NCBI GenBank assembly: GCA_043812195.1
Contig: JBDRML010000001.1
Location: 3,857-67,856 of the forward strand
Direction: 5' to 3'
Source of the DNA: Candidatus Woesearchaeota archaeon
GTDB taxonomy: Archaea > Nanobdellota > Nanobdellia > SCGC-AAA011-G17 > PNOQ01
Length of the DNA: 64,000 bases
The notes under the pieces were generated by a model that was given only the letters and a program-made list of their open reading frames with translations, ran no database searches and was not told the DNA's origin. Shown in pieces: positions 22,553 to 48,349 of the stretch (its first letter is position 1; each line of letters begins with the position of its first letter). The position numbers were made by a program, and so were the translations under genes.

Positions 22553-22580
22553 GTAGCGAGAGGTGTCTCGCACTCTTATT
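22553..22580 (+). repeat. palindromic cassette-boundary repeat, copy 1 (GTAGCGAGAGGTGTCTCGCACTCT...)
   Basis: matches consensus GTAAGCGAGAGGTGTCTCGCGCTCTCTTTTAGATAAG; hairpin GCGAGA-GGTG-TCTCGC. Confidence 0.85.
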
Positions 22581-22634
22581 TAACAAGTTTTTTAAATTTC
22601 ATTTTTTTACTTAAAAAAGGTAATACTTTAGAAA

Positions 22635-24101
22635 ATGAACAGAATATCAAAAAAAAGCAAAATAACTCTTGTAGAGTTAGCTCCAACTCAATATGGAGTT
22701 TTAAATGGAGAACCCTCTTTTGATGTTTCTAGTCTAACTAGTTTTCCTGCTAGGGCTATACATCATTTAGAAGCAATTTTAACAGAAGCAGGATATGAAG
22801 ATGTTCAATCAATAAATCAAAAGTGTCATGGAAGAGATGGGAGATTAAGTGTAGACAATCAAAAAAGAATATACAGCTCAGACATCCTATTAACATCTTC
22901 AATAACAAGAACATCCCCTCAATCAATTATGCTAGGAAGAACCTACAAATCTCTCAATCCAAATGGAATAGTAATAGCAGGTGGTCAAGATCCAACATTT
23001 AGATATAAAGAATGGCTAGATCAAATAGGGGCAGATATCATTGTGGTTGGTGAAGGCGAAAAAACTCTTGAATTATTAATGGAAAGATTAGAAAAACAAC
23101 CAGATTATTTAGATGATATAGATGGTATAGCATTTAGAAATGGAGACACAATAAAAGTTACAAATACAAGAAAACGTTTAACATCAGAAGAGTTAGGTCA
23201 ACTCCCACATCCCTGTTATGATGAAATTACAAGAAAATTAACTACACCCGCCATTGAGACTAGCAGGGGATGCCCATGGGGCTGCGATTTTTGTAGCGAA
23301 ACGGAATTTAATGGAGGAAAATATAGAACAAAACCAAATAAATACACACTCAAAGACATGGTAACAGCAAAATCCTGGAAAAAACCACCATTTTATGTAG
23401 ACAATAATTTTGCAGCCTCTCAAAAAAGAACAATGGATTTATGCAACCAAATTTATGAAGCAGGTCTAAGTATCCCAAAAAGTTCTGTGCAAGTTACAGT
23501 AAAAGCAGCCCAAAATCCAGAACTGTTAAAATCATTAAAAAGAGCAGGCATAAATTTAGTAAATATAGGAATAGAATCAATTATAGATGAAAGTTTAAAA
23601 GATCTTGGGAAATCATTTAATGCAGAACAGAACAAAGAAGCAGTTAAAATATTCAAAGAAGCAGGTTTTTGGGTTCATGGAATGATGATGCCAGGCGGTG
23701 AAGGAGATACAATTGAAACATTAAAAGAAACTTCAGAATGGATAAATAAAAACTTAGATAGTGTACAACTATTTCCTCCAATACCTGGACCAGGAACAAG
23801 ACTAAGGAAAAGAATGGAATCAGAAGGAAGAATTCTTTCAGATGATTGGTCTTTATATGATGGGCAGCATGTTTTAATAAGACCAAAACACATCACACCA
23901 TACAAACTCCAAACCACAGTATTTGATATGTACAAATCATTTTATACATTTAAAAATAATTTAAGAAGATTAAGAAATTCTCCACAAAGAAATTTTTCTT
24001 GGCAAATACTTCTATACACTAATCTCTTAAATGGTATAACAAAAGTTACAAATGCACCACAAACAAGAGATCATTTAGAATTTTTAAAATCTATCAATTG
24101 A
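22635..24101 (+). CDS. B12-binding-domain radical SAM protein
   Basis: CPWGCDFC = CxxxCxxC; N-terminal Rossmann-like B12-binding region. Confidence 0.7.
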   Translation: MNRISKKSKITLVELAPTQYGVLNGEPSFDVSSLTSFPARAIHHLEAILTEAGYEDVQSINQKCHGRDGRLSVDNQKRIYSSDILLTSSITRTSPQSIMLGRTYKSLNPNGIVIAGGQDPTFRYKEWLDQIGADIIVVGEGEKTLELLMERLEKQPDYLDDIDGIAFRNGDTIKVTNTRKRLTSEELGQLPHPCYDEITRKLTTPAIETSRGCPWGCDFCSETEFNGGKYRTKPNKYTLKDMVTAKSWKKPPFYVDNNFAASQKRTMDLCNQIYEAGLSIPKSSVQVTVKAAQNPELLKSLKRAGINLVNIGIESIIDESLKDLGKSFNAEQNKEAVKIFKEAGFWVHGMMMPGGEGDTIETLKETSEWINKNLDSVQLFPPIPGPGTRLRKRMESEGRILSDDWSLYDGQHVLIRPKHITPYKLQTTVFDMYKSFYTFKNNLRRLRNSPQRNFSWQILLYTNLLNGITKVTNAPQTRDHLEFLKSIN

Positions 24102-24107
24102 TTTTAT

Positions 24108-24135
24108 TTAGCGAGAAGTTTCTCGCGCTCTCCCC
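24108..24135 (+). repeat. palindromic cassette-boundary repeat, copy 2
   Basis: TTAGCGAGAAGTTTCTCGCGCTCTCCCC, 7 nt after the stop codon. Confidence 0.85.
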
Positions 24136-24173
24136 TTAGGAAGTTTTATATATAAAATTATTTAAATAAAAAT

Positions 24174-25166
24174 ATGAAAAAAGTAGCCATATTACTGATT
24201 ATATGCATCTTAATGGTTTCTCCAATTGTTCACGCTCAAACCTATTCTAATTTCGAAGGCTTTGTAGATAATGTAAAGCTGTTCTTTGCCTCTGGAGATA
24301 AAAAAGTAAGTCTTTCTTCAGAAATAAGGGAGAAAGAAGTTAATTCTGCAATTGAAAGCACAAAAAAAGGAGATATTAATAAAGCTAACCAAAATCTTGA
24401 AAGAGCAAGAGAAAAACTCCAATTTATACAAGAAAAAGTTTCTTTAAATACTGCTGATGAAATAAAAGAGAGTGTTAATAATGTTGTAGAAAATATAGTA
24501 GTAGAAGAAAATCTTCCAAACACTTTTGATGTGTATGTTATGGAAGAGCAAAAAACACAATTAATCGCAGAACTTGTTATAGTGGTTGAAGGTAAAGAAG
24601 GGCAAGATAAAGTAAGAGTAGTAGAGGGAGCATTAGGAGAAATTAATAATGAGATCAAAGGTTGGGTAGTTGAAAACACTGTTGCAGAAGGTGAAAATTC
24701 TATGGATAATGGTTTAACCTGGGAAATAAAAACAGATATAGATTCTGGGAATTACGGTGGAGATGATGGTTTAACCACTATAGTAAAAGAATATATTGAA
24801 GGAGATGGAACATTAAAAATTGAAGATGTTAAAAAAGTTATTGAAAAAGGAAAAAATCAGATTGATAGTGCACCTATGACAAAAGACAATGAAGACGTAA
24901 CCCCTGCTCCAAATATAGTTGATGATGATATGTGTGAAGAAGGAGAAGAAAATTGTAATAATGATGACATGGCTCCAGGACCACAAGGAATTGTAGGACA
25001 AGTTGATGATAGTAATTCAAATGAAGAAAATTCTGAAAATTCTGGTAGTGAAAATAATGATGGAGAAGATTCTGGAGGAGATAGCGGAGAAGAGATAACA
25101 GGAGAGATAGTAAGAACTCAAAAAACAAGTTTTTTAGAACAAATTTTCAATTTCTTTTTTAGTTAA
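24174..25166 (+). CDS. secreted acidic protein
   Basis: signal peptide; D/E/N/G-rich C-terminus. Confidence 0.5.
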   Translation: MKKVAILLIICILMVSPIVHAQTYSNFEGFVDNVKLFFASGDKKVSLSSEIREKEVNSAIESTKKGDINKANQNLERAREKLQFIQEKVSLNTADEIKESVNNVVENIVVEENLPNTFDVYVMEEQKTQLIAELVIVVEGKEGQDKVRVVEGALGEINNEIKGWVVENTVAEGENSMDNGLTWEIKTDIDSGNYGGDDGLTTIVKEYIEGDGTLKIEDVKKVIEKGKNQIDSAPMTKDNEDVTPAPNIVDDDMCEEGEENCNNDDMAPGPQGIVGQVDDSNSNEENSENSGSENNDGEDSGGDSGEEITGEIVRTQKTSFLEQIFNFFFS

Positions 25167-25197
25167 GTTTAAAAACAAGTAATTCTAAAATTAATTC

Positions 25198-26196
25198 ATG
25201 AAAAAAAGTGTGATATTAATTATTCTATCAATTTTAATTAGTGGTTGTGCCACAGAAGAACCAAGAGAAACTGAGATTTTCTGCCCAGATTATGATGGAG
25301 ATGAAGAAGTATGTTTGTCTCACTCAGAATGTGAATGGGATACAGAAGAAAACAATTGTGATTCAATTGGAAACATAAATGAAAATGATGAAAATGAAAA
25401 TGATAATGATGAAAATGATGATGGGGGAATTAATCAAGAATTAGAAAATATTGTTGTTCCAGATAATCCTTCAAATACTCTCTGCAAAAAAATACCTTTT
25501 TCAGATGGACTAACTTATAGTTCAAGATATCATTGTCTTGCTCTTGTAAATAATGATGAAAAATTTTGTGAAGGGGTTGATACAACAAATGATAAATATA
25601 TTTGTTTAGCTCATGCAAATGCAGATTCTTCTTATTGTGAAAAAATTGAAGATCAGGATGCAAACCATGTTGGTGATGATGCAAACCATGTTTGTTATTT
25701 TATGCTCGCTGTATCAAGTGAAAATGCTGATTTTTGTAATGACATTGATTATTTAGATACAGCACAAGAAAACAAAGAGGAAAAAGAAAAATGTTATTTT
25801 AGTTTTATGAGTAATTTATATCAGTGGGACAAATCTGATGAAATAACTACAGAAATTTGTGGTCATCTGGAAGATGAGATGGAAAAAACTTGTCTTGCAT
25901 TAAAAGCAAGAGATATTTCTATGTGTGAAAGTAATCCTAACTGTTTGAGTTTTTTTGAACAGCCATTATCTTTTTGCGATGAACGTCCAGATTTTGTTTC
26001 TTGTATGAAAGATAGAGCAAAAACAGATAAGAATGTTTCAATCTGTGAACTGCTTTCTCAACCAGATAGGGATGTTTGTGTTGGGGTTTATTGTACCCAT
26101 ACAGAGCTTAATGCAAACATTTGTGATACAATTGAAAATGTTCAAAAAAGGCAAGAATTTTATGTAGAACTTGCAATGAATTTAGCTAATAAATAA
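25198..26196 (+). CDS. Cys-rich acidic lipoprotein
   Basis: lipobox-like LISGC; many paired Cys. Confidence 0.5.
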   Translation: MKKSVILIILSILISGCATEEPRETEIFCPDYDGDEEVCLSHSECEWDTEENNCDSIGNINENDENENDNDENDDGGINQELENIVVPDNPSNTLCKKIPFSDGLTYSSRYHCLALVNNDEKFCEGVDTTNDKYICLAHANADSSYCEKIEDQDANHVGDDANHVCYFMLAVSSENADFCNDIDYLDTAQENKEEKEKCYFSFMSNLYQWDKSDEITTEICGHLEDEMEKTCLALKARDISMCESNPNCLSFFEQPLSFCDERPDFVSCMKDRAKTDKNVSICELLSQPDRDVCVGVYCTHTELNANICDTIENVQKRQEFYVELAMNLANK

Positions 26197-26327
26197 AAAT
26201 TCCTCCAGACATCATTTCTGGAATAATTAAAAATTGGCATATAAATTTGGAAAAGAAAATTTTCTAAAAGAGGGTTAGATATTATTTTCCAAAAAATACT
26301 TAAAACATAGACAATTCCTATTAAAAC

Positions 26328-27560
26328 ATGGGAATTTTCAAATTTTTAAAAAAGCTTTCCAGCAAGGAAGAAGAAATAAGAGAGATTAAACTAGAAGAAT
26401 TAAACCAATTTATCGATTCCTTATCTAAAAAAATAGTTGGAAATGCAGATTTAAAGTTAGTAGAGATAAAAGAGAAGATAATCAAAGAAAAAAGGGAAAT
26501 GGAAGAAAACATTCAAAAATTAAATGATACAAAATTAAAAAATCCAAATATTCCAGAAAGAGCTAAACAGATAGCAATAGGTAACAAGGAAGTATATCTA
26601 CAAAAAATCAATATATTTCTACAAGAAGTTAATCTCTTTAAAAATTTTGATGAAAGCATAAATTTCTATGACTCAATTGATAAAAATTTATACATTTTTG
26701 ATAAAGCAACTACTAAAAGCAATAAAATTCTATCTGAATTTTTCCCTGATGAAATGATGAGCATTTCTAAAAATATAAAGAATTTATGTGATTTAGCAAA
26801 AAAAATAAAAAAATTAGTAGATGATGCAGAAATAGAGAAATACAGTAAATTAAAAGATAAAGTTAATGAAATACAACAGAAAATAAAACAACAAGAAAAT
26901 ATAACAAAAGAAATAGAACTAATAAAAACAGAATTACAAACTCAAATTAAAAAGATAAATGAAAAAGAAAATAAAATAAAAGAACTTGAGGAAAATGATG
27001 AGTACAAAAAATTTTCTGAGTTAACAAATAAAAAAGAAACATTAGAATTAGAAGCAGAAGAGATTGAAAAACAGCCATTTAATTATTTTTATAATATTAA
27101 ACCTGCTTTAAAGAAATACGAAAGGCTGACTTTAGATTATATGCTAATAAACGAATATTTAGATAATCCTCTGAAAGCTTTATTGAAAGATAAGGAGCTA
27201 AAAATACTAGAACATATTGGCAAAATTAAAGAATTTATTATTAATGAAAAATTTGAGATAAAAGAAAAAAAGAAAAGTAGAATATTAAAAGAATTAGATG
27301 AACTTACTAAAAATAATCTTGAAATATTTTTAAGCAAGTATTATGAATCAAACAAAAAATTAAATGAAGTAAATTTAGAAATAGAAAAAATAGAAGTTAT
27401 TAAAGAAATCAAAAAGATAAAAGAACAATTTAATCAAGATAAAAGTAGATTAGAAGAAAATGAATCCAAAATTGAGAATATGAAAGAACAATTAAGAATG
27501 ATTAATATTGAGAATTTAAAATTAGTTTTAGAAGAAGAGCTAAAAATAAAAATAATTTAA
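26328..27560 (+). CDS. coiled-coil protein
   Basis: K/E-rich heptad-like composition throughout. Confidence 0.45.
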   Translation: MGIFKFLKKLSSKEEEIREIKLEELNQFIDSLSKKIVGNADLKLVEIKEKIIKEKREMEENIQKLNDTKLKNPNIPERAKQIAIGNKEVYLQKINIFLQEVNLFKNFDESINFYDSIDKNLYIFDKATTKSNKILSEFFPDEMMSISKNIKNLCDLAKKIKKLVDDAEIEKYSKLKDKVNEIQQKIKQQENITKEIELIKTELQTQIKKINEKENKIKELEENDEYKKFSELTNKKETLELEAEEIEKQPFNYFYNIKPALKKYERLTLDYMLINEYLDNPLKALLKDKELKILEHIGKIKEFIINEKFEIKEKKKSRILKELDELTKNNLEIFLSKYYESNKKLNEVNLEIEKIEVIKEIKKIKEQFNQDKSRLEENESKIENMKEQLRMINIENLKLVLEEELKIKII

Positions 27561-27577
27561 TATTTTGTAGAGAAATT

Positions 27578-27826
27578 TCATTTTTTCTTAATCAATAAAA
27601 CTATCATCCCAATTAAACCAATTATAAATGCTATGGGTGCTATTGGAACCGAAACAAAGAAAAATATTGTGCTTAAAATCTCAAATAAATATTTTAATAT
27701 AAATATATCTTCAAATATTATTCCTAAAGCATAAAATAAGTTATGTAGTAATACTGAAACAAAAAATAAAATAACAGATCCAACAGTTAAGATTACAAAC
27801 TTTCTAAATTTACTCAACTTTTTCAT
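27578..27826 (-). CDS. small membrane protein
   Basis: two TM helices. Confidence 0.4.
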   Translation of the reverse strand: MKKLSKFRKFVILTVGSVILFFVSVLLHNLFYALGIIFEDIFILKYLFEILSTIFFFVSVPIAPIAFIIGLIGMIVLLIKKK

Positions 27827-28137
27827 TTTAATTTAACGGCAGTACCATAAGCTAATATTTCTGCAGCACCAGTCATAACCATTGAAGTCATAAATCTTAC
27901 ATTTATGATTGCATCTGCGTTTAGTTTTTCAGCTTTATCAGTCATTCTTTTCAGTGCAATCTCTCTTGCTTCGCTTAACATTTCAGTATATTGCTTTATT
28001 TCTCCACCAATTATTTGTTTAAAGCCAGCTATAATATCTTTTCCTATATGTTTTGCTTGAATAACATTTCCCTTTACTAATCCTAAGTTTTCTGTTACCT
28101 TTTTATTTGGTATATAATCTATGTTTGTTATTATCAT
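27823..28137 (-). CDS. YbjQ/UPF0145-family protein
   Basis: MIITNIDYIP...GKDIIAGFKQIIGGEIKQYTEMLSEAREIALKRM...ADAIINVRF matches the UPF0145 family. Confidence 0.8.
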   Translation of the reverse strand: MIITNIDYIPNKKVTENLGLVKGNVIQAKHIGKDIIAGFKQIIGGEIKQYTEMLSEAREIALKRMTDKAEKLNADAIINVRFMTSMVMTGAAEILAYGTAVKLK

Positions 28138-28397
28138 GGTTTTAAATCCTCCTTGTTTATTTTTTTAAGATCTTTATCATCTTGAATTCTTTCTTTTATT
28201 AGAGAGATTAATATTAAGATAGTTCCTATTCCCATTAATACAAAACTTATTCTTAGTATAAATAAGAATAGACCATCATCTTCCATTTCTCCATCCTCTT
28301 CAAAATCTCCGAAAAAAATTGGATAAAATGAAACTAATATGATTATTATTAAGCCTAAAAGAAAGATTATTGCTCCTGTAACTGTTAGTTTGTTCAT
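28134..28397 (-). CDS. small membrane protein (start trimmed to the internal Met)
   Basis: the first 22 codons of the track ORF are the reverse reading of repeat copy 3 (MRARDTSRLL), so the true start is probably MNKLTV at 28397. Confidence 0.4.
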   Translation of the reverse strand: MNKLTVTGAIIFLLGLIIIILVSFYPIFFGDFEEDGEMEDDGLFLFILRISFVLMGIGTILILISLIKERIQDDKDLKKINKEDLKP

Positions 28398-28435
28398 AAT
28401 TTTAGTATTTAAAGATATGTTTAAAAATGTTTTGA

Positions 28436-28465
28436 GTAAGCGAGAAGTATCTCGCGCTCTCACAA
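28436..28465 (+). repeat. palindromic cassette-boundary repeat, copy 3
   Basis: GTAAGCGAGAAGTATCTCGCGCTCTCACAAG. Confidence 0.85.
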
Positions 28466-28472
28466 GAGGTTT

Positions 28473-28754
28473 GTGCTTAGAAAAGGATATTCAGATTACT
28501 CAAAAAAGAAAAAATCTGTAGAAATAGGGAAGGTATGTATAAAAAAAGGAGATAAGATACTATTAATTGATGATATTTTTGAAAGCGGAGGCGTTGGTAG
28601 GGCAACTATACATCTAATTGAAAAACTTGGAGGAGAAGTGAAAGGAATTTTTACAGTATTTAATAAGTTAGATAAAACAGGTGAAAAATATTTTAAAAAA
28701 TATAATTATCATTATTTAATAAAATTAGAAAAAAAGAAGAAAGATATTAAGTAA
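28473..28754 (+). pseudogene. phosphoribosyltransferase C-terminal fragment (truncated at the repeat)
   Basis: PRPP-binding motif ILLIDDIFESGG is present but the N-terminal ~100 aa of a PRTase are missing; the fragment begins directly after repeat copy 3. Confidence 0.55.
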
Positions 28755-28780
28755 GCGAGAAGTATCTCTCGCTCTCCTAA
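28751..28780 (+). repeat. palindromic cassette-boundary repeat, copy 4
   Basis: GTAAGCGAGAAGTATCTCTCGCTCTCCTAAG. Confidence 0.8.
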
Positions 28781-28821
28781 GAACCAAAAGATTTATATAG
28801 TTAGTAAGATTAGTCTTACTT

Positions 28822-29097
28822 GTGATTAAAATGGATATTGCTATAACAAAAATGAGTTCAAAAGGACAGATTGTAATACCGTCTGAGATGAGAGAAGATA
28901 TACCAGAAGGTGAAAAAATGATAATAATAAAAGATAAAGGAAAGATAATAATGAAAAAAGCAAGCGACATGGACAAACAACTAAACGAAGATTTAGAATT
29001 CGCTAGAAGGACTGAAGAAGCATACCAAAGAATTGAGAGAGGAGAAGGAATCAAGATGGATTTTGATAACTTTATTAAAGAGATAAAGAAATGGTGA
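28822..29097 (+). CDS. AbrB/MazE/SpoVT-type antitoxin
   Basis: MSSKGQIVIPSEMREDI swapped-hairpin motif; overlaps the downstream toxin gene. Confidence 0.6.
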   Translation: MIKMDIAITKMSSKGQIVIPSEMREDIPEGEKMIIIKDKGKIIMKKASDMDKQLNEDLEFARRTEEAYQRIERGEGIKMDFDNFIKEIKKW

Positions 29098-29336
29098 ATG
29101 TTATATTTGATCCTATTTTTAAAAAGAAATTTATGAAAATAAAAGATAAACAATCAAAAAATAAGATAATAAAACAAATCCAAAAAATAAAAGAAAACAC
29201 AGAGATTGGAAAACCAATGAAATATAGCAGAAAAGGCAGTCGAGAACTTTATGTTTTTCCATTTAGACTATCTTATATGATTAAAAGTAGCGAATTAATT
29301 TATATTTTAGACATTTATCATAAAGATGAACAATGA
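29091..29336 (+). CDS. RelE/ParE-family toxin
   Basis: 81 aa; ...RELYVFPFRLSYMIKSSELIYILDIYHKDE resembles the RelE/ParE C-terminal pattern; a 7-nt overlap with the antitoxin gives a typical type II TA operon. Confidence 0.55.
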   Translation: MVNVIFDPIFKKKFMKIKDKQSKNKIIKQIQKIKENTEIGKPMKYSRKGSRELYVFPFRLSYMIKSSELIYILDIYHKDEQ

Positions 29337-29397
29337 TAAAGATTTATTTACTATTCTCAAAACCAACATAGATTCTAAATATTAATTTTTATAATAA

Positions 29398-29428
29398 GTA
29401 AGCGAAAGGTTTCTCGCGTCCTCTTAGA
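29398..29428 (+). repeat. palindromic cassette-boundary repeat, copy 5
   Basis: GTAAGCGAAAGGTTTCTCGCGTCCTCTTAGAAAG. Confidence 0.8.
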
Positions 29429-29469
29429 AAGCTTTTTAAGCTTTTTTTAAACTCTATAAAAAGGGTAAG

Positions 29470-29477
29470 GAGGAATT
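29470..29477 (+). promoter_or_regulatory. Shine-Dalgarno-like aaggagga upstream of 29482
   Basis: taaggaggaatttaaaATG. Confidence 0.4.
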
Positions 29478-29481
29478 TAAA

Positions 29482-37099: not shown

Positions 37100-37113
37100 C
37101 AACCTAACTAATT

Positions 37114-41045: not shown

Positions 41046-41102
41046 AAGATCTAAAGAAGAATTTAAAGAGAGTTGTGTGCACGTTTATGGTAAACTACTA
41101 CT

Positions 41103-41675
41103 ATGAAAAAGAAAAGGCAAAAACCATGGGAAACAAAATTAATTGAAAAAATTATTGATGTTACTGGTTATTGTTTTCCTGGAGCGGAAGAAGAAGCATT
41201 GAAGCAGTTTAACAAAGTAAAAGCTAAAGAAATTTCTGTAATGCGAACTAAAGTAGATTTTGATCGTGGTTTTCAAACATGGTTTTTATTAAAATATTTA
41301 ATCGAAGAAAAATTTACACCAATGGAAGTTATTTCTGGAAACCCGTCAAATTATTTTACAAAAAGAGAATTGCAAATGGTTGATAACTTTCTCAATAATA
41401 AAGAGGGCTTTTATGAAATAATATCCATCTCAAGAGACAAAAAAGACTTTACCATAAAGAATGTTATGAATAGCGAGATTATTTCTGTAAAAACAATTGA
41501 TTTTCCCAACAAATTAAGTAAAGGAGAACATATTTATACAATTCCTGTGCAAAAGCTTGATGGAAACTATTTCTTTTACGGCAATGTAACATGTTATTCA
41601 AAAGAGAATTGTGTAGATATTGTAAATCTTACAAAGATAGAAAAAGCACATAGGTTAAGTTTATATGAGAGATGA
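41103..41675 (+). CDS. hypothetical protein
   Basis: ORF track. Confidence 0.4.
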   Translation: MKKKRQKPWETKLIEKIIDVTGYCFPGAEEEALKQFNKVKAKEISVMRTKVDFDRGFQTWFLLKYLIEEKFTPMEVISGNPSNYFTKRELQMVDNFLNNKEGFYEIISISRDKKDFTIKNVMNSEIISVKTIDFPNKLSKGEHIYTIPVQKLDGNYFFYGNVTCYSKENCVDIVNLTKIEKAHRLSLYER

Positions 41676-41985
41676 ATTAGTCAAAAAATTTAAAGATAAG
41701 GAAATTGAAGTTCTTTTTTCAACTAAATGTAATAGGGGTGTAGATTTTCCAGGTGAAATTTGTAATAGTATTATATTCACAAAATATCCATATCCTAATG
41801 TAAGTTCTTTATTTTGGCAGATATTAAAGAAAAGTAAGCCTGAATATTATAGTATGTTCTATAAAGATAAAGCTGAAAGAGAATTCTTGCAAAGAGTTTA
41901 TAGAGGTCTTAGGTCAGAAAAAGATCATATAAATATTTTAAGTCCAGATATTAGGATTTTGAATTCCATTGGGTTGGTTAAGTAA
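41665..41985 (+). pseudogene. duplicated 3' fragment (106 codons) of the XPD-like helicase gene
   Basis: translation is identical to the last 104 aa of 30391..33576; nucleotide near-identity with 33259-33576; followed by repeat copy 13. Confidence 0.75.
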
Positions 41986-42015
41986 GCGAGAGGTTTCTCG
42001 CGCTCTCTTAATTAA
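41983..42015 (+). repeat. palindromic cassette-boundary repeat, copy 13
   Basis: GTAAGCGAGAGGTTTCTCGCGCTCTCTTAATTA. Confidence 0.85.
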
Positions 42016-42622
42016 AATAACCTTCATACTGTTCTAAATGTTCAAAGAACTTTTTAGCATATACCTCGCAATTTGGTTGCAATTGGGCATCAAGATCTCC
42101 ATGGCACCCAAAATTTGCATATGCATTTCCATATATTTTATCATATTCAATAATTTTCTTTATAGTATTGGGAGGAACTATTAAAGGAATTCCTTCGTTT
42201 TGATAGTATTCTACAGAATGAGGAGGCATCATATTAATTTCTGAATAATTATACCAAACTTCAAAATCTCCTAAATTTTCAACTTTGCCCCTTTTCTTCA
42301 CTTTTTCAGTTTCTTGATAATATAGATTATCTTTATTAAAAACCAAAACAGTAGCCACGATTCCAGCATAATAAAAAGTATTCTCATTTGTAATGTTCCT
42401 ATTTTTATCCTCAGCAATCAGCATAGAATAATATCCCCATTCATCACCTTCCAGTCCTGCCCCTCCTACTTCTGAATTAGGAATATACCCTTCAGGAAGT
42501 TCGGTATTAACAAAACTTAAAAATAAATTATTATCCTTTTCTATATCAAGTTTAGAAAACTTACATCCTGAAATAGGCAAGATAATTAAAATAATTAAAA
42601 TAAATAATAACTTCTTTTTCAT
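42008..42622 (-). CDS. lipoprotein
   Basis: lipobox ISGC; the gene is inverted relative to the repeats. Confidence 0.5.
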   Translation of the reverse strand: MKKKLLFILIILIILPISGCKFSKLDIEKDNNLFLSFVNTELPEGYIPNSEVGGAGLEGDEWGYYSMLIAEDKNRNITNENTFYYAGIVATVLVFNKDNLYYQETEKVKKRGKVENLGDFEVWYNYSEINMMPPHSVEYYQNEGIPLIVPPNTIKKIIEYDKIYGNAYANFGCHGDLDAQLQPNCEVYAKKFFEHLEQYEGYFN

Positions 42623-42666
42623 AGTAAAATATTAATACTTTACTATTTAAATATTTCCAAATTAGT

Positions 42667-42700
42667 CTTAGCGAGAGCTTCTCCCGCGCTCTCTTTAGTA
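42667..42700 (+). repeat. palindromic cassette-boundary repeat, copy 14
   Basis: TTAGCGAGAGCTTCTCCCGCGCTCTCTTTAGTAA. Confidence 0.8.
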
Positions 42701-42762
42701 AAAAACCTAAAAAAACCCAAAATTAGTTCCTTTTATATATTTTTCTAATATTTCTATTTTAG

Positions 42763-44025
42763 ATGAAAATACTAAAAAGCCCTATTTCAGTTCACTATGA
42801 ATTAACTGAAAATTGCAATCATCGTTGCGAACATTGTTATAATCCCTTTGCGCATATTTCTGAAGAAGTTCCAAAATTAACAAGAGATAGAATAATAGAA
42901 GAATTAGTACAAAATGAAGTATTTCATGTTATCCTTACTGGAGGAGAACCATTATTTTATCAAGATATGGCTGTAGATGCTGTAAAAAGATTAAATAAAA
43001 ATGGAGCTGTTGTTTCTTTAAATTCAAATTTAACTTTAATGGATAGAAATACTGCAGTCTCACTTAAAAAAGCAGGTCTAAAAAGTGCCCTAACTAGCAT
43101 AACTCACTATGATCCAAATATTCATGATAAAATTACTAAAATAGATGGAAGTTTAGAAAGATGTATTTCTGGAATTAATTATCTTGTAAATCAAGAAATA
43201 CCTGTCTCAGTAAATATGGTCGTAACAAAAGACAGAGTTGACGATGTTTACAAAACAGGAGAAATGTTAGTAGATTTAGGTATTACAGGTTTTTCAGCAA
43301 CAAGAATGGCGCCAAACAGAGATAATCTAAAAGAAATTTTAGATGCTCAAGAAGTAAAACATATGTTAGATCAATTATTATTATTAAAAGAAAAATACGG
43401 CATTAATGTTTCAAGCTTAAACAATCTTCCAAGATGTTTTAGTTCTGACAAAAAATATGGGATATTTATGAATAGATCTTGTAATGGTGGAAGAACAAGT
43501 GCAACAATAACTCAGATAGGTGGATTAAAATCTTGTCATCATTTAGATGAAGTTGTTGGAAATATAATAGAGGAAGGATTATCAACAGTTTGGGAAAAGG
43601 CTCCAGTATTAAAAGATGAAAGATTGCCAAAAGGATGTTTAGCATGTGATGTAAATGAAAACTGTGCAGGAGGCTGTAGACAAACTGCAGAAGTTGTTAG
43701 AAACAAAAAAACAGGCCTAGATCCAATTGCAAGAGGAAAAGAACAAATAATAACCTTAGATCCACCAGAACTGCCAAATAAAGATAGCACATTAAGATTT
43801 ATGAAAGATACATTATATAGAAAAGAAAAAAATGGAGGGGTTTTATTTAGAAATCCAAGAAATTATGCAATATTAAATGAATCACAATATCAGTTAGCTT
43901 TAAAACTGTCAAACAACTCTTTTTCAATAAATGAATTGAAAGATTTATTTGGAAATGAATTAAGTTCCTTTATGGAAAGATTATACCAAAAAGGTTTAAT
44001 AGGGGAGGCAAAATGGAAAAATTAG
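42763..44025 (+). CDS. radical SAM/SPASM-domain peptide-maturase-like enzyme (paralog of 35523..36881)
   Basis: CNHRCEHC (CxxxCxxC); C-terminal CLACDVNENCAGGC SPASM-like. Confidence 0.8.
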   Translation: MKILKSPISVHYELTENCNHRCEHCYNPFAHISEEVPKLTRDRIIEELVQNEVFHVILTGGEPLFYQDMAVDAVKRLNKNGAVVSLNSNLTLMDRNTAVSLKKAGLKSALTSITHYDPNIHDKITKIDGSLERCISGINYLVNQEIPVSVNMVVTKDRVDDVYKTGEMLVDLGITGFSATRMAPNRDNLKEILDAQEVKHMLDQLLLLKEKYGINVSSLNNLPRCFSSDKKYGIFMNRSCNGGRTSATITQIGGLKSCHHLDEVVGNIIEEGLSTVWEKAPVLKDERLPKGCLACDVNENCAGGCRQTAEVVRNKKTGLDPIARGKEQIITLDPPELPNKDSTLRFMKDTLYRKEKNGGVLFRNPRNYAILNESQYQLALKLSNNSFSINELKDLFGNELSSFMERLYQKGLIGEAKWKN

Positions 44026-44177
44026 TTACTAACGAAAAAAGAATTGACTTAAAATATGAGCCAGCAGGCAAGTTAGCAGAGATTAAAGAATTGACTTCAA
44101 AAGCAAATGTAATAGAAGAATTAAATTATTTAAGAACAATAGATTACGATTGTGATGACGGAAATTGTAGTGATTAA
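44013..44177 (+). CDS. precursor peptide (54 aa) with C-terminal DYDCDDGNCSD
   Basis: start overlaps the rSAM stop; leader SKANVIEELNYLRTIDYDC is similar to SKTNDIEGAYSVDSC of the 36878 peptide. Confidence 0.55.
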   Translation: MEKLVTNEKRIDLKYEPAGKLAEIKELTSKANVIEELNYLRTIDYDCDDGNCSD

Positions 44178-44179
44178 AT

Positions 44180-44767
44180 ATGATTTATAACTTAAATGAA
44201 GTAAATGAAAAAGAACTAAAAGAGTTCTTAGATACCTCATTAGAAGAACTAAAAGAGTTTTACAAATTAGGGGAATTTCAAACTCCTAATTTATTTATTT
44301 TAAAAGATAGAAAAACTATAGATCAATTAAAAGGGAAAAAAACAGAGGATTGGTTAGTTGGTTGGTCTGTCCCAGAGCTTAATTCAATTTTTGTTCTAGA
44401 AAAATCTAAATTCGGAACAGAAAGCAAAAAAGTATACAGCGATAATATGTACAATAAATTACTGAAACATGAATTAGTTCATATTATATATCATAAAATT
44501 TCTAAAAATAGAAAACCAGTTTGGCTTAGTGAAGGTATAGCAATTTATCTTTCAGGCCAATATCTTAAAAAAACTAGACCAGAAAAATTCAAAAATTTCC
44601 TAAATTTTTATAATGAAGGAGGATCTGAAGTTTATGAAGAAAGCGGATTTGCTGTTGAATTATTAATCAACAAATTTGGAAAAGAAAAATTATTAACTTT
44701 AATTAAATCTTTAAACGGAATAGAATCAGATAAAGAATTTTTAAAGAAATATACAAAGTTGAGCTAA
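44180..44767 (+). CDS. HExxH zinc-metallopeptidase-like protein
   Basis: HELVHIIYH; starts 3 nt after the peptide stop. Confidence 0.5.
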   Translation: MIYNLNEVNEKELKEFLDTSLEELKEFYKLGEFQTPNLFILKDRKTIDQLKGKKTEDWLVGWSVPELNSIFVLEKSKFGTESKKVYSDNMYNKLLKHELVHIIYHKISKNRKPVWLSEGIAIYLSGQYLKKTRPEKFKNFLNFYNEGGSEVYEESGFAVELLINKFGKEKLLTLIKSLNGIESDKEFLKKYTKLS

Positions 44768-44795
44768 ATTACAATCTTTTTAATAATTAAAAATT

Positions 44796-44830
44796 TTAGA
44801 AAGAGAGTGCTCTCTTTAGATAGATTTTTA
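44796..44830 (+). repeat. variant cassette-boundary repeat, copy 15
   Basis: TTAGAAAGAGAGTGCTCTCTTTAGATAGATT, with palindrome GAGAG-TG-CTCTC. Confidence 0.6.
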
Positions 44831-44857
44831 TATTTCAATTAATTAATAAAAATAAAA

Positions 44858-45832
44858 GTGGTGAACAAAACTAGGAGGAATGATATAATGAAAAAGGGTT
44901 TGTTAGTTTTATTTTTGTTTAGTGTTTTAGTTCTTGCTTCAACATCAACTTCAGCAGCTAATTGTGGTGGTAATATTTCTTGTAATTGCGGAGATACAGT
45001 TGTTGAGGATTATGTTTTGGACAGAGACTTATTTTGCGAATCTACCTACTGGCCACCAACTTCTATAGGTTTGATGGTTGGTTCTGAAGGTATTAATATA
45101 GATTGTAATGGTCATAGTATAACTAGTGATAATAATGAACCAAACTTTAATATTGCTAATTATGCAATACACACTCTGAATAAAGATAACATAACTATAA
45201 AAAACTGCCATTTTCATTACTTTTTTTGTGGCATATATGCAAATTCTAAAAATAATTTTATCCATAACAACGAATTTAATGACTCTGCATTGGGTATTTG
45301 GACTACGGGCCCTAACAATACAATTAGAAATAATGAAATGCATCACAATTATAGAGCAATTTGGATTAATGGCAATGGTAATCTAATTTCAAACAACAAT
45401 ATATATAATAATTATCAAGGCATTTCATTCTATTCTATATCTCCACCAGGACCATTTACTAATAATACATTCTGGATTAACAGGTTTGTAAACAATGATA
45501 TTGTTGTTGATGAAGATAACACAATTGGTAATCATTGGAATAATAGTAATGTAGGAAACTTCTGGGATGATTTTGATGATAATATTGGATATCCAGATTA
45601 TTACTTGGTTCCAGGCAACGCTGGTTCTGTGGATTATCATCCAATCTGGTTCTGTAAAGAGGGAATAGAACCAGAAGTATGTTCTGAACAAACACCATTC
45701 TGTTGTAGATATGGAGAATTAGTAGCTGATTGTCAACAATGTGGCTGCCCTTCTGATAGACCAAAATGTCAAGAAAATGGACATTGCACAAAAGCAGATA
45801 AACCAACTTTGCCGTTCATTATAGCAAATTAA
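44858..45832 (+). CDS. secreted right-handed parallel beta-helix repeat protein
   Basis: signal peptide; repeated NNxxxNN/IxNN blocks (NNEFND..IRNNEMHHN..ISNNNIYNN). Confidence 0.6.
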   Translation: MVNKTRRNDIMKKGLLVLFLFSVLVLASTSTSAANCGGNISCNCGDTVVEDYVLDRDLFCESTYWPPTSIGLMVGSEGINIDCNGHSITSDNNEPNFNIANYAIHTLNKDNITIKNCHFHYFFCGIYANSKNNFIHNNEFNDSALGIWTTGPNNTIRNNEMHHNYRAIWINGNGNLISNNNIYNNYQGISFYSISPPGPFTNNTFWINRFVNNDIVVDEDNTIGNHWNNSNVGNFWDDFDDNIGYPDYYLVPGNAGSVDYHPIWFCKEGIEPEVCSEQTPFCCRYGELVADCQQCGCPSDRPKCQENGHCTKADKPTLPFIIAN

Positions 45833-45847
45833 ATACCAATGGTTAAA

Positions 45848-46861
45848 CTATTGTTCTGGGCTAAAAACCTTCAATTGTCCACTATTGAATAAAATAGGTA
45901 ATTGTTTAAAAATCCCTCCTTGGGCATCATAACAATTACAAAGAAATCTCAACCCAGTAATGCCGTCCTCTATGGTATAATTGCTTCCTCTGCAAAAGTC
46001 TGAACATTCTTGTATTTGTTCTTCTGTTGGTTCAGATGGTTTAGCCAAATAACTACTCGCTTCAACATTCATAACTTTTCCAGTATAAATAGGAACAACT
46101 TCTGGATAATCATATCTATCAAAAAGATTAACCGAACCTATGGTTCCAGGTCCAGTAGACTCAACAAAACAATAATCAGTTTCAAAATTACCTTTATTAC
46201 ATTGAATTCCAACAGTCATATGCTCTTTTTCATCAAATAAAAATAAAGCTACACCATATCCCATTCTCTTTAAAATCTTCCCAAGTAATAAGGATTTATC
46301 AGCACACATTCCTGTATTATCATATAATGTTTCATAAGGATATCTTACAGAATACACTCTATAATTAATTGTTTCATCATAAGGTATTCTTCTAACTAAA
46401 TAAATTAAATCTCTAACGAGATTATCTCCTTCATTGCCTGTTCTTTCTTTTGCATTTTCTATAAGTTGATCTATTACATATAAATCATTATCATCTTCAA
46501 GATACATCAGCCAAATTTCTGCTTCCGCTTCTTTACTTATTTCATCTGGATAATACCAAAAATTTTGAGGAGCATCAAAAACAAAATGATTATATACACT
46601 ATGATGTAATTCTATATTAAAATAACCCAATCTTACCTTTAAATCCTCGGATATTATACTACTAGTATGTTCTACTAACTCTACAGTTTCACTTTCATTA
46701 TTATCTCCTTCTAAATTATCCACACTTATTAATTCTGTATAATCTTCTGGATCAGTATAATTTACTAAAGCTAAAGCTATCACAATAATCAAAAGAATAA
46801 CCCATGGTGTTGTATTTGGTGTTTTATTTTTTTTACTCATCTTATTTATCTTCTGTTTCAA
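45848..46861 (-). CDS. transglutaminase-like cysteine protease domain protein, N-terminal TM
   Basis: GMCADKS (Cys) ... EHMTVG (His) with a downstream Asp; spacing is transglutaminase-core-like. Confidence 0.55.
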   Translation of the reverse strand: MKQKINKMSKKNKTPNTTPWVILLIIVIALALVNYTDPEDYTELISVDNLEGDNNESETVELVEHTSSIISEDLKVRLGYFNIELHHSVYNHFVFDAPQNFWYYPDEISKEAEAEIWLMYLEDDNDLYVIDQLIENAKERTGNEGDNLVRDLIYLVRRIPYDETINYRVYSVRYPYETLYDNTGMCADKSLLLGKILKRMGYGVALFLFDEKEHMTVGIQCNKGNFETDYCFVESTGPGTIGSVNLFDRYDYPEVVPIYTGKVMNVEASSYLAKPSEPTEEQIQECSDFCRGSNYTIEDGITGLRFLCNCYDAQGGIFKQLPILFNSGQLKVFSPEQ

Positions 46862-46940
46862 ATACTTAGTAATTCTATTTTTTAAGCTTCTTCATTCCAT
46901 TATTTAAAACAAAATAAATGTATAAAAATGTTTGTGTTGA

Positions 46941-46975
46941 GTAAGCGAGAAGTGTCTCGCGCTCTCTTTAAGAAA
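46941..46975 (+). repeat. palindromic cassette-boundary repeat, copy 16
   Basis: GTAAGCGAGAAGTGTCTCGCGCTCTCTTTAAGAAAG. Confidence 0.85.
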
Positions 46976-47008
46976 GTATATAAATCAATTAAATAACATA
47001 ATCCTAAC

Positions 47009-47878
47009 ATGTTAGGAAGAAATCATGTTTCAATTTCATTAGCTACAATTATGCCTTTCTTAATACCTCTTATCTTTTTAGAATCAAATAATTCAATAAT
47101 ATATGGTTTTGCTTTTTTAATATCTATTCTTGTTGGATCTCTGCTACCCGACGCAGACTGTGGAGGAAAATCAAAACTCTATTACGATTTTAACATATTC
47201 TACCAATTAATTATTCCAATTACCAAATTAACTGTTTGGACATTTAAACTTTCAAGTGTTAAAAAAAAGTTGTCTACAAAGTTTTCAGAATTACAAGATG
47301 TAAATCATGAACATAGAGGGATAATGCATTCACCCATAGGAACGATAGTCAGTTCTTTTTTGTTAACTTTAATTATTCTTATCATAATGACACTTATTGC
47401 TAAAACTAATCTATTATTAGTTTTAATTATCTTTCTAGGATTAATTATTGGACAAATTCTACATTTATTAGAAGATTCCTGCACTGTTACTGGGATAAAT
47501 TGGATGTTTCCATTTGGAAAAAAAGAATTAAAAGGGCAAATATACACATTTGAGTGGAAATATCAAAATAAAAAAGATATCCGGCCGATGATTTATGTTT
47601 ATTCCCTGGTGGCTGTGTCCATTATATCCTTATTAGTAAACTCATTTGGGGCTGTGAATAATCTTTTTTTATATTATTTAATAACAACAATCGCAGTTTT
47701 GATAATTTGGATAATAATTATCAAGATATCTCAAAGTCAGTCTATTTTTTGGTATAGAGACGCCGAAAAAATAAAACAAATACAAAAAAAACAAAGAAAA
47801 GCTTTAAAAAAATTTACAGGAATAAAAAGAAAAAAACACAAAAAAAGATCATATAAACATTTTAAGTCCAGATATTAG
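47009..47878 (+). CDS. polytopic membrane protein (metal-dependent hydrolase-like?)
   Basis: 6+ TM helices; LLPDADCGG; the 3' end runs into the long-form repeat. Confidence 0.4.
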   Translation: MLGRNHVSISLATIMPFLIPLIFLESNNSIIYGFAFLISILVGSLLPDADCGGKSKLYYDFNIFYQLIIPITKLTVWTFKLSSVKKKLSTKFSELQDVNHEHRGIMHSPIGTIVSSFLLTLIILIIMTLIAKTNLLLVLIIFLGLIIGQILHLLEDSCTVTGINWMFPFGKKELKGQIYTFEWKYQNKKDIRPMIYVYSLVAVSIISLLVNSFGAVNNLFLYYLITTIAVLIIWIIIIKISQSQSIFWYRDAEKIKQIQKKQRKALKKFTGIKRKKHKKRSYKHFKSRY

Positions 47879-47940
47879 GATTTTGAATTCTATTGGGGTA
47901 GTTAAGTAAGCGAGAAGTGTCTCTCACTTTCTTTTAGAAA
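47838..47940 (+). repeat. palindromic cassette-boundary repeat, copy 17 (long form)
   Basis: gatcatataaacattttaagtccagatattaggattttgaattctattggggtagttaagtaagcgagaagtgtctctcactttcttttagaaa. Confidence 0.85.
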
Positions 47941-47979
47941 AATATTTATACACCCCAAAATAATCAAAATTATAAAAAA

Positions 47980-48102
47980 ATGGCAAACATATGTGAAAAA
48001 TGCGGAAAATTAGTAAATGAATGGACTAAAATAACGCATGATGAAGATGGAGAAAACAAATACTTTTGTAATGGAGACTGCTTTAGTGAATACATTAATT
48101 AA
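47980..48102 (+). CDS. small zinc-ribbon protein (40 aa)
   Basis: MANICEKCGKL...FCNGDCF; not in the track. Confidence 0.4.
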   Translation: MANICEKCGKLVNEWTKITHDEDGENKYFCNGDCFSEYIN

Positions 48103-48120
48103 AAAAGGAGGCAATTTAAA

Positions 48121-48273
48121 ATGGATGAAATAAAACACATATATTCGATGGTTATGCAAAGAGATGACAAATCTCTAAAAAACTACTTAAAAAATAAAAG
48201 AAATCAGGAAAAAGCAAGAGCTAGAAAAATAAGAATAGTAGCAAATGCAGTTCATAGGATTTATACAGCTTAA
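48121..48273 (+). CDS. small basic protein (50 aa)
   Basis: aaaggagg 8 nt upstream; not in the track. Confidence 0.35.
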   Translation: MDEIKHIYSMVMQRDDKSLKNYLKNKRNQEKARARKIRIVANAVHRIYTA

Positions 48274-48312
48274 ATAATAAATAATTAGAAGTATATTAAA
48301 TTTTATGTTTTT

Positions 48313-48349
48313 GTAGCGAGAGGTTTTTCGCGCTCTCTTTTAGATAAGA
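48313..48349 (+). repeat. palindromic cassette-boundary repeat, copy 18 (last + strand copy)
   Basis: GTAGCGAGAGGTTTTTCGCGCTCTCTTTTAGATAAG. Confidence 0.85.

Follow-up and report, generated by a model that had tools for sequence, protein, structure and literature searches.

Evidence for a chromosomal cassette array bounded by a short repeated element in a Woesearchaeota archaeon

We analysed a 64,000-nucleotide (nt) stretch, referred to here as the window, of a contig from a groundwater Candidatus Woesearchaeota archaeon, one of the DPANN archaea, with a G+C content of 24-33%. About 40% of the window, a segment of ~26 kb at 22549-48348, is very probably a chromosomal array of ~15 gene cassettes, and the 37-55-nt element that recurs between them is well supported as the boundary at which cassettes are exchanged. 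In metagenome contigs of the same population, cassettes are present or absent, and differently ordered, exactly at this element. The kind of system is known; what is new is the type of site, here in DPANN archaea. These organisms have tiny genomes and depend on hosts, and how they acquire and shuffle genes for surface proteins, toxin-antitoxin pairs, peptide modification and defence is poorly understood. The locus provides a concrete, sequence-defined shuffling platform with population-level evidence for activity.

The boundary element and its distribution

The 22-nt core of the element, GCGAGAGGTGTCTCGCGCTCTC, is matched 13 times in the window at up to three mismatches, against 0.00 matches expected from 100 shuffles. 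Looser pattern searches and an nhmmer profile built from the copies extended this to 16 plus-strand copies within 22549-48348 (E1 to E16), one of them degenerate (42668), and a seventeenth on the - strand at 63054-63090 (E17), with no further element in the window at E<=10. A sequence-only reading of this DNA had counted 18 copies in the range, all in one orientation; the orientation held, while the number came down to 16 in the range and one outside it. Under a uniform spread, the probability of finding at least 16 of 17 copies in 40% of the window is 5e-6, and that of a uniform orientation in all 16 array copies is 3e-5. Spacing between elements ranges from 315 to 4329 nt.

Alignment of 23 copies from the window and related contigs gave the consensus AAGTAAGCGAGAGGTnTCTCGCGCTCTCTTTnA, with the layout AAGTAA-GCGAGA-RGTN-TCTCGC-GCTCTC-TTTnA (AGTAA-GCGAGA-RGTN-TCTCGC-GCTCTC-TTTTAG in the window), which agrees with the consensus drawn up earlier. 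One part of the earlier description had to be withdrawn, as GGTTAAGT, taken to be part of the element, belongs to the 3' end of a helicase gene and its fragments, which precede five copies. The element comprises an optional left arm, the core GCGAGA-RGTN-TCTCGC-GCTCTC, and a T-run with a purine-rich stretch that leads into a TATA box. All 23 aligned copies have GTAA or GTAG directly ahead of the 6-bp stem, in a register that varies by 1 nt. The left arm is GT-rich in E14 (AAAAATGTTTGTGTTGAGTAA), with similar arms in E1, E3, E16, E17 and the contigs L003 and L014; in four copies the core starts right after the TAA of an upstream open reading frame (ORF), and in two more a second left-arm variant, TGATTT(T)ATTT(T)A, places a TGA 9 nt before the core. 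On the 3' side the core is followed by TTTTAG-RWAAG and then by a TATA-like box, which begins 8-15 nt past the core in 11-12 of the 16 copies, with 37-58 nt separating the core from the next start codon. Each unit appears to own an archaeal promoter, with TFB recognition element and TATA box, abutting the element. A stop codon occurs 0-9 nt before the hairpin and T-run in 7 of the 16 copies, and E1, E3, E10, E13 and E14 sit 5' of minus-strand genes; the orientation of the element follows the array, not the neighbouring gene.

The exact element had no match in 185,579 species-representative genomes (among which the source metagenome-assembled genome, MAG, is not included), and it is lineage-specific. 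Three scans of viral contigs, with window-type, relaxed and L025-type patterns, also returned no match and gave no sign of a viral or plasmid vehicle. As the sequence-only reading had asked, we considered whether the element is a local array or a dispersed family, and it is not dispersed: the 38 kb of the window outside the array hold one copy, and 12 low-GC contigs in the metagenome collection carry it, of which 9-11 map to this array or to a second one starting at ~63 kb. In contig L002 a single element stands alone behind a TldD-like gene.

Among 80 loci encoding relatives of the array helicase, a related element is found in one, L025, from Woesearchaeota RIFCSPLOWO2_01_FULL_33_9b (helicase 60% identical); the other 79 are without it, including the closer relatives L021-L024 (64-68% identity). 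The L025 element, AGAAGAGCGAGAGAAACTYGTGTCTCTCAAAG, is present as three full and two left-half copies in one orientation, bounding cassettes that carry a truncated radC with the helicase, an MNT/HEPN pair, a RelE-like pair and a Fic gene. Both species share the outer motifs GCGAGAG-N10-CTCTC-N2-4-AGATAA, while loops and flanks diverge. A homologous element with different cargo means that the system occurs in two species, and the retention of the outer motif in both suggests recognition by a protein.

The core folds into a hairpin with a 6-bp stem and a 4-nt loop (about -6 kcal/mol as DNA), much as first described, but this fold is not universal and does not covary. No compensatory changes occur in the six stem pairs among the 23 copies, in which variants merely break the stem, and the inner hairpin is missing from both E13 and the L025 element (z=0.12, not significant), each of which retains the outer GCGAGAG-N10-CTCTC. 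The conservation therefore lies at the level of the sequence, as expected for a duplex site recognised by a protein or for copies of recent common origin. The centre of the loop is GT in 21 of 23 copies, which might tentatively point to a serine recombinase, and the arms can be read as 12-2-12 around it, with matches at 8 or 9 of 12 positions; other readings are 6-4-6 and an outer 5-N10-5, and the whole is loosely dif-like. Adjacent elements share loop variants in three identical pairs against ~2.2 expected, which is not significant.

Junction polymorphism and gene fragments

In order to compare junctions between strains, contigs with the element were collected by an exact-pattern scan of metagenomes, ENA assemblies of the same population were added through protein look-ups, and variant junctions were identified by BLAST against the window and by junction alignments. 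Exact-protein look-ups with radB, CPBP, the 146-aa ORF and the truncated RadC had no match. The scan yielded 18 contigs, 12 of them low-GC (JGI samples Ga0180007 and Ga0180009); the six high-GC contigs (L006, L007, L011-13 and L018) were set aside as chance matches in coding sequence of unrelated organisms. The order of the window is upheld at 99-100% identity across E1/E2, E3, E4/E5, E10 and E14 (contigs L017, L004, L115, L015 and L008).

The clearest variation surrounds the cassette encoding a TATA-binding protein (TBP), which has three different left neighbours, joined at the element each time. In the window and in L015, the minus-strand gene for a 173-amino-acid (aa) protein is followed by E10 (39136-39173, core 39143-39164) and the TBP gene. 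In L009, sequence corresponding to window 41505-41985 (a 190-aa gene and a 324-nt helicase fragment, 98.6% identical) runs into the E10 core, the TBP gene, E11 and the start of a 433-aa gene. In L019, a k141 assembly, the full helicase gene (97.5%) is joined to the E10 core and the TBP gene at 100%, and four cassettes amounting to 5.5 kb are missing. All three contexts have an identical core, the loop variant AGTG and the atypical 3' flank AATAG, and the exchange therefore took place at or to the left of GCGAGA. L009 represents a circular permutation of the window order E10-TBP-E11-433aa-190aa-E12, with 41985 joined to the E10 core, exactly as excision of a 2.84-kb circle or duplication in tandem would produce.

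Further boundaries vary in the same manner. To the left of E3 (28432-28468, core 28440-28461), a different sequence is present in L016 and L118 and, independently, in L117, the break falling left of GAGTAA. A different cassette lies to the right of E6 in L010 and to the right of E17 in L001, with divergence starting after TTTTAG. In the two best-resolved cases, those of the TBP gene and of the phosphoribosyltransferase (PRTase) fragment that follows E3, most of the site, including the whole core with its loop variant and atypical 3' flank, moves together with the downstream cassette, which puts the exchange at or to the left of GCGAGA. The rearrangements are not assembly artefacts, because the sequence shared at the junctions is only ~24-40 nt and two of them come from k=141 assemblies (L019 and L117). 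It is thus established that cassettes differ in presence and in order at the repeats, and this was the comparison set beforehand as decisive (L009, L019, L016/L118, L117, L010 and L001). With variant neighbours joined at the element, the earlier view of the copies as recombination breakpoints rather than passive terminators is borne out.

Several elements also cut genes short, as had been noticed from the sequence. The helicase gene ends 9 nt before E6, and 3' pieces of it precede E7 (68 nt), E11 (~59 nt), E12 (324 nt) and E15 (68 nt), those at E7 and E15 beginning at the same base; the last codons of the helicase (…SIGLVK*) are similar to the GT-rich left arm of the element. The fragment before E12 (41662-41985) is 96% identical to 33253-33552 of the helicase gene. 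On the right flank, E17 cuts a RadC paralogue (63087-63587) after codon 163, leaving a 166-aa ORF whose last three codons before the stop derive from the element. Homology to the full-length radC (59918-60625, 235 aa) stops at the start of the GT-rich arm, 14 nt short of the core, and in L003 another radC copy is cut after ~80 codons. The combination of a full helicase gene followed by 3' fragments, and of 5' radC fragments followed by a full radC, suggests Campbell-type insertion of circles that carried a partial gene copy.

Homologous recombination has left its own traces in these fragments. Across the 3'-terminal 310 nt of the helicase gene, the allele in L019 shares the L009-fragment haplotype, with agreement at 11 of 13 variable sites, and the 324-nt fragment of the window (41662-41985, compared with 33253-33576, L009 and L019) is a mosaic of the L009-type haplotype and the window helicase allele. 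The helicase gene and its fragments have therefore exchanged sequence by gene conversion or homologous recombination.

Mechanism of exchange and competing explanations

A cassette thus consists of a core, its own predicted promoter, one to six genes and the left arm of the next site, and recombination within the element very probably accounts for the gain, loss and re-ordering of cassettes. In the mechanism that we favour, the exchange would be conservative and site-specific, between a copy on a circle and a site in the array, through a trans-acting recombinase whose gene lies outside the array. The crossover would fall at the core's 5' edge, somewhere from the GTAA tag to the loop. We assign a probability of roughly 0.55 to conservative site-specific recombination by a trans-acting recombinase. 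It is the most economical reading because the element always accompanies unrelated incoming cassettes, both species keep its outer motif and the orientation is strictly uniform. Occasional recombination at secondary sites, together with homologous recombination between the longer helicase fragments, would then account for the truncated radC, helicase and PRTase pieces and for the mosaic haplotypes. The best candidate for the enzyme would be a small XerA-like protein encoded at 5562-6188, acting much as in integrative mobile elements exploiting Xer (IMEX) or integron cassettes, although the array would be neither. More tentatively, since here we would put the odds somewhat below even, the locus may represent an undescribed, IntI-independent DPANN platform in which promoter-bearing cassettes with a 37-55-nt, GTAA-tagged site move as circles through a host recombinase, possibly this one, and so a functional counterpart of integrons with an independent evolutionary origin.

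The gene at 5562-6188 (+ strand), 16 kb upstream of the array, is the sole recombinase gene in the window and encodes a 208-aa, XerA-like tyrosine recombinase that contains the catalytic domain only. The sequence-only reading had stated that no tyrosine recombinase lies next to the array, which is correct in that none adjoins it, yet the window does encode one. The protein matches Pfam Phage_integrase (6.5e-36) and positions 83-263 of 263 of NCBIfam XerA_Arch (4.7e-44; 151 bits versus a cut-off of 220). It belongs to a family of 837 proteins of ~200-220 aa, which we call mini-XerA; the best 120 of the 837 are 53-81% identical, and the taxon-named members among these 120 are from Woesearchaeota or Nanoarchaeota MAGs. 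In another species (L112) the order Cdc6/Orc1 … xerA-PAC2 … SerRS-topA-radB is conserved, with radB followed by a Na/Ca exchanger and no array. The conserved family and the synteny thus identify mini-XerA as a core gene. It is at most a plausible candidate for the trans-acting enzyme. A search for att repeats around this gene and the tRNA-Lys (the only Rfam match in the window at gathering thresholds) gave nothing convincing.

Several observations weigh against a dedicated site-specific system. No recombinase, transposase or HUH gene is found among the ORFs of the array or the right flank (Pfam, NCBIfam, PHROGs and PADLOC), and no recombinase anywhere from 7 to 64 kb. The mini-XerA family is conserved in many species that have no element, and the element seems unlike the known dif core, ATAA-N6-TTAT. 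Breakpoints are not confined to one position, as the junctions of E6 with L010 and of E17 with L001 diverge only at the 3' edge, and L014 and L003 have a common downstream cassette but a different loop. Instead of a circle, L009 may reflect a tandem duplication or a variant strain. The lack of compensatory changes leaves a structural or protein-recognition role unproven, and the genome-wide copy count is only indirect, coming from the window and metagenome contigs. Lastly, homologous recombination demonstrably contributes, so that part of the reshuffling needs no dedicated enzyme, and some rearrangements, for example of the L009-type order into that of L019, could be purely homologous.

This last point underlies the main rival, unlikely in our estimate but serious, in which the element is a repetitive extragenic palindromic (REP)-like sequence, a 'mobile intergenic module' in a variable island, and the polymorphism is a by-product of homologous recombination, gene conversion and slippage with no dedicated recombinase. 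Bacterial GTAG-type REPs are 20-40-nt palindromes with a GTAR tag, a 5-13-bp stem, a short loop and stop-codon donation; they are associated with REP-associated tyrosine transposases (RAYTs), and their clusters also include flanking DNA of variable length (PMC3733652). The element resembles REPs, bacterial interspersed mosaic elements and REP doublets forming hairpins (REPINs) in its GTAA/GTAG tag directly 5' of a 6-bp stem, its stem size, its abutment on ORFs, its stop-codon donation and the bits of flanking DNA in its clusters. The TATA box, nearly fixed 8-15 nt past the core, would suit a terminator/promoter module that could be an operator, the mosaic helicase-fragment haplotypes are direct evidence for homologous recombination or gene conversion, and the array has no recombinase in or beside it. 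REPs, however, are dispersed in tens to thousands of copies, mostly as inverted dimers, and head-to-tail arrangements are rare (PMC3733652), whereas 16 of 17 copies here stand in direct orientation within 26 kb, without inverted dimers, with one in the other 38 kb and on ~12 metagenome contigs. Homologous recombination accounts for loss and duplication, not for the arrival of unrelated sequence that is always element-bounded (L016, L010, L001 and all of L025). The outer motif GCGAGAG…CTCTC…AGATAA is also kept in two species while loops and flanks diverge, which speaks for recognition by a protein. Furthermore, no RAYT or other HUH gene is present in the window, and no recombinase, TnpA or RAYT gene in the related element-bearing contigs. 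To our knowledge, REPs have not been described in archaea and do not delimit exchangeable multi-gene cassettes; even if homologous recombination does the shuffling, this would be the first REP-like, cassette-delimiting repeat described in an archaeon.

Single-stranded movement by a HUH/Y1 transposase (an IS200/IS605-TnpA or RAYT-like enzyme) that cleaves at GTAA and TTAG, known as 'peel and paste', is improbable. It would fit the conserved GTAR tag 5' of the hairpin and the TTAG 10-12 nt 3' of the stem, the placement of all copies on one strand, and the apparent breaks at both edges of the element, to the left of GTAA/GCGAGA and to the right of TTTTAG. IS200/IS605-type units and palindrome-associated transposable elements have two subterminal hairpins, at the left and right ends (LE and RE), with TnpA in autonomous copies, as opposed to one hairpin per junction and no TnpA gene in the array. 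The hairpin is also weak, gone in E13 and not significant in L025, with no compensatory substitutions, while the outer inverted repeat is kept.

Less probable still, and already contradicted, is the notion that the copies are passive terminators or 3'-untranslated hairpins and the rearrangements assembly artefacts at repeats. Metagenome assemblies can break or be mis-joined at repeats, and 7 of 16 copies place a hairpin and T-run shortly past a stop codon. Intrinsic terminators would lie downstream of a gene and in its orientation, unlike the 5 of 17 copies (E1, E3, E10, E13 and E14) that have nothing to terminate; near-identity over ~37 nt far exceeds what a terminator needs, and, as described, independent contigs match the window order and the variant junctions share little sequence. 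A secondary terminator role is possible for the copies other than these five.

A canonical integron or cluster of attC sites lacking an integron-integrase (CALIN), with IntI encoded elsewhere, was the comparison suggested by the sequence-only reading, and it is effectively refuted. Published archaeal integrons, which include integrons and CALINs in Nanoarchaeota MAGs, have canonical attC sites and IntI (Ghaly et al. 2022, PMC9668308). The array is like them in having one site per junction in one orientation, small coherent units of one to six genes, occasional reversed genes, toxin-antitoxin pairs and unknown genes, some ORFs that stop inside the site, an order and content that differ between strains exactly at the sites, and a circle-type junction, while any recombinase would act in trans as in a CALIN. 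The resemblance ends with the site itself. In integrons, attC sites are imperfect palindromes of 57-141 nt with R''/L''…L'/R' boxes and extrahelical bases, cassettes are mostly promoterless and expressed from a common promoter, Pc, and IntI, a tyrosine recombinase with an insertion of its own, is encoded beside attI and Pc. The conserved part of the element is ~37 nt, shorter than attC; an R''(RYYYAAC)/R'(GTTRRRY) pair within 47-150 nt occurs in 0 of 16 copies, and the perfect 6-bp stem with its 4-nt loop is not part of any extended bulged hairpin common to the copies. The cassettes have their own predicted TATA promoters in place of Pc, most of the site remains with the downstream cassette, the opposite of attC, and the array carries fragments of neighbouring core genes (helicase and radC). 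It has no IntI either, the sole tyrosine recombinase of the window falling far below the cut-offs of the integron-integrase models (87.5 versus 265 bits and 44 versus 435).

Returning to site-specific recombination by a trans-acting enzyme, some of the closest known parallels are Xer-based. IMEX are integrase-less units that use a host tyrosine recombinase and a short, imperfectly palindromic site, and they form tandem arrays, such as CTX/TLC of Vibrio at dif (PMC5357621). Like these, the array has direct repeats of a site in tandem and a host Xer-like gene, a candidate for action on the element. It differs in that the element shows at most a loose likeness to known dif cores, in that at least two arrays and a solo site are present here as opposed to one dif locus, and in its location in the conserved Orc1/Cdc6 neighbourhood seen in L112 rather than in an obvious terminus. 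The exact element had no match in the 185,579 species genomes scanned, although the XerA-like protein is 53-81% conserved. A review of archaeal tyrosine recombinases mentions no archaeal IMEX. If mini-XerA does act on the element, the exploitation of housekeeping Xer by mobile DNA would extend to archaea, with the first archaeal IMEX analogue. The pdif modules of Acinetobacter plasmids, with resistance genes and toxin-antitoxin pairs, likewise consist of discrete gene modules between short sites in varying contexts; their 28-bp, 11-6-11 Xer-type sites alternate in orientation (inverted), whereas the 16 array sites are all direct, are built differently and are chromosomal and archaeal. More generally, should the element be served by a dedicated or hijacked recombinase, cassette capture of the integron kind would have arisen at least two times, using sites that are unrelated. 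The small site with its promoter module would be a ready-made tool for archaeal genetics.

Cassette contents and flanking loci

Gene content was assigned with Pfam, and with NCBIfam, PHROGs and PADLOC in addition for array ORFs of unknown function. The units hold one to six genes and are functionally coherent, for example a toxin-antitoxin pair, or a radical SAM (rSAM) enzyme with its peptide and accessory genes, with 27 ORFs on the + and six on the - strand. The earlier description of the cargo is confirmed by Pfam, which recovers a MazE/AbrB-ParE/RelE pair, a single-repeat TBP, two rSAM-SPASM modules with Cys-rich peptides, and the PRTase and helicase 3' fragments; the minus-strand genes noted within the fixed-orientation array are also present.

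The array starts right after radB, as first proposed, with the slightly degenerate E1 (22549-22588, core 22556-22577; …TCTCGCACTCTT) between the divergent radB (21913-22512, -) and cassette 1. Cassettes 1 and 2 span 22578-28439 (+), between E1 and E3. The first encodes a B12-binding radical SAM enzyme (22635-24101), and E2 (24104-24141, core 24111-24132; left part TGATTTTATTTA) lies 9 nt past its TGA. Cassette 2 encodes a secreted 330-aa protein, a 332-aa lipoprotein and a 410-aa coiled-coil protein and, on the minus strand, an 82-aa membrane protein, YbjQ and a ~90-aa membrane protein. In cassettes 3 and 4 (28462-29401, +), the PRTase 3' fragment (28473-28754; Pfam profile positions 80-141 of 158) makes up the whole 315-nt unit between E3 and E4 (28747-28783, core 28755-28776), whose GTAA provides its stop codon, and a MazE/AbrB antitoxin (28822-29097) and ParE/RelE toxin (29091-29336) are followed by E5 (29395-29432, core 29402-29423).

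Cassette 5 (29424-33585, +) contains genes for a 155-aa lipoprotein, a 63-aa Zn-ribbon protein and the Rad3/XPD-like helicase (30391-33576, +), which has a LAGLIDADG intein in its P-loop (Intein_splicing 1.6e-26, LAGLIDADG_3 2.8e-17) and whose closest relatives, from Woesearchaeota or Nanoarchaeota MAGs, are at most 68% identical. The homologue in L025 (600 aa) is without an intein. E6 (33579-33617, core 33586-33607) follows, and its right-hand cassette differs in both L010 and L019. Cassettes 6 to 9 (33608-39142, +) are those missing between the helicase and TBP genes in L019. They encode a DUF4064 membrane protein and a DUF4352 lipoprotein (cassette 6), a 146-aa DUF6886-like protein (cassette 7), an rSAM-SPASM enzyme with a 73-aa Cys-rich peptide and a 231-aa protein (cassette 8), and a 226-aa secreted protein with the minus-strand 173-aa protein, also secreted (cassette 9). 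E7 (34866-34905, core 34874-34895) comes after its helicase fragment at 34806-34873, while E8 (35370-35408, core 35378-35399) and E9 (37802-37839, core 37810-37831) give the 146-aa and 231-aa ORFs, respectively, their stop codons.

Cassettes 10 and 11 (39165-41985, +) form the 2.8-kb unit found in three contexts, and each ends in a helicase 3' fragment. The TBP of cassette 10 (39212-39481, +; 89 aa, PF00352, 3e-22) has a single repeat, and such a half-TBP is unusual as accessory cargo. E11 (39562-39598, core 39568-39589), with a degenerate right arm, follows the fragment at 39509-39567. Cassette 11 encodes a Schlafen/AlbA_2-HATPase-wHTH protein (39744-41045, 433 aa) and the 190-aa ORF, and its fragment runs up to E12 (41978-42017, core 41986-42007). 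In cassettes 12 to 15 (42008-48315, +), a minus-strand gene for a 204-aa lipoprotein (cassette 12) is followed by the degenerate E13 (42668-42703; GCGAGAGCTTCTCCCGCGCTCTCTTTAG), in which the outer motif reads GCGAGAG…GCTCTC. Cassette 13 encodes an rSAM-SPASM enzyme, a 54-aa peptide, a peptidase-MA-like protein, a NosD beta-helix protein and a minus-strand 337-aa protein, and after E14 (46937-46977, core 46945-46966) cassette 14 encodes a YdjM membrane hydrolase. E15 (47902-47941, core 47910-47931) comes after the fragment at 47842-47909, and cassette 15 contains a 40-aa Zn-ribbon ORF (47980-48102) and a 50-aa ORF. The last array copy, E16 (48313-48348, core 48316-48337), has a TTTTAGATAAG tail that overlaps the stop codon of a convergent CPBP/Rce1-like gene (48340-48933, -).

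Beyond E16, the defence-like island predicted earlier is present at 50290-59934, between the two arrays, and encodes a CARF-wHTH protein (Csa3/CasR-like), a UvrD/GajB-like helicase that has a Cas4-like nuclease at its C-terminus, and the Mod (969 aa) and Res (1085 aa) proteins of type III restriction-modification. An ORF at 61699-62514 has a weak Brig1-like DNA-glycosylase match (6.5e-7, far below the cut-off). As L001, L003 and L014 show, E17 heads the second array, which is in minus orientation and runs past the window end in L003 and L014, with cargo that includes a PLD-like nuclease, a coiled-coil protein, small ORFs and radC pieces. E16 (48316, +) and E17 (63083, -) are inverted and bracket a 15-kb defence/radC segment, which recombination between them would invert; no inverted variant of 48316-63083 was seen in the few available contigs.

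The 80 helicase loci were also searched for analogous boundary repeats by a de novo k-mer approach. In L081, from the Pacearchaeota MAG SO_2017_LW4_63, three ~90-nt, palindrome-containing repeats (…CCGGGTAACCTACACTCTGCCAGAGGGTGTTGAACACCCGG…) that are unrelated to the element are found at 19198, 20209 and 21620, 1-1.4 kb apart and 8 kb downstream of the helicase gene; they may be another cassette-boundary or RNA element. Two other candidates, L047 (starts of paralogous Cas4-like genes) and L082 (a tandem repeat), are not related arrays, and L105 and L119 hold split or frameshifted helicase genes instead of arrays. The short ORFs of L101-L104, which resemble the helicase C-terminus, belong to another Nanoarchaeota species and have no element. 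All four are independent assemblies that break inside the helicase 3' end, and beside the break, at 713-1234, they encode a 173-aa protein, unrelated to the present finding, in which a Zn-ribbon is combined with an isolated serine-recombinase 'Recombinase' domain (PF07508) without the catalytic domain.

On the left flank, a free-standing LAGLIDADG homing-endonuclease-like gene (20687-21838, -) lies between topA and radB. It is polymorphic in presence, since L017 is without it and joins 19313-20676 to 21906-26472 by ~320 nt. The xerA gene is followed by genes for an HNH endonuclease (6245-6607) and a Zot/nSTAND-like P-loop ATPase (7052-7747); in L112 xerA adjoins PAC2 directly, and these two genes therefore look like an insertion. 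An HATPase_c_2 gene (4443-5063) is replaced by short ORFs in L107-L109. Closer to the window start, iteron-like tandem repeats with CAATCACTCAA(C) units occupy 1886-2268, partly inside the ORF at 1991-2575, and CGAACATTCGC tandem units fill 2921-3012 in the intergenic region before the ORF at 3031-3594.

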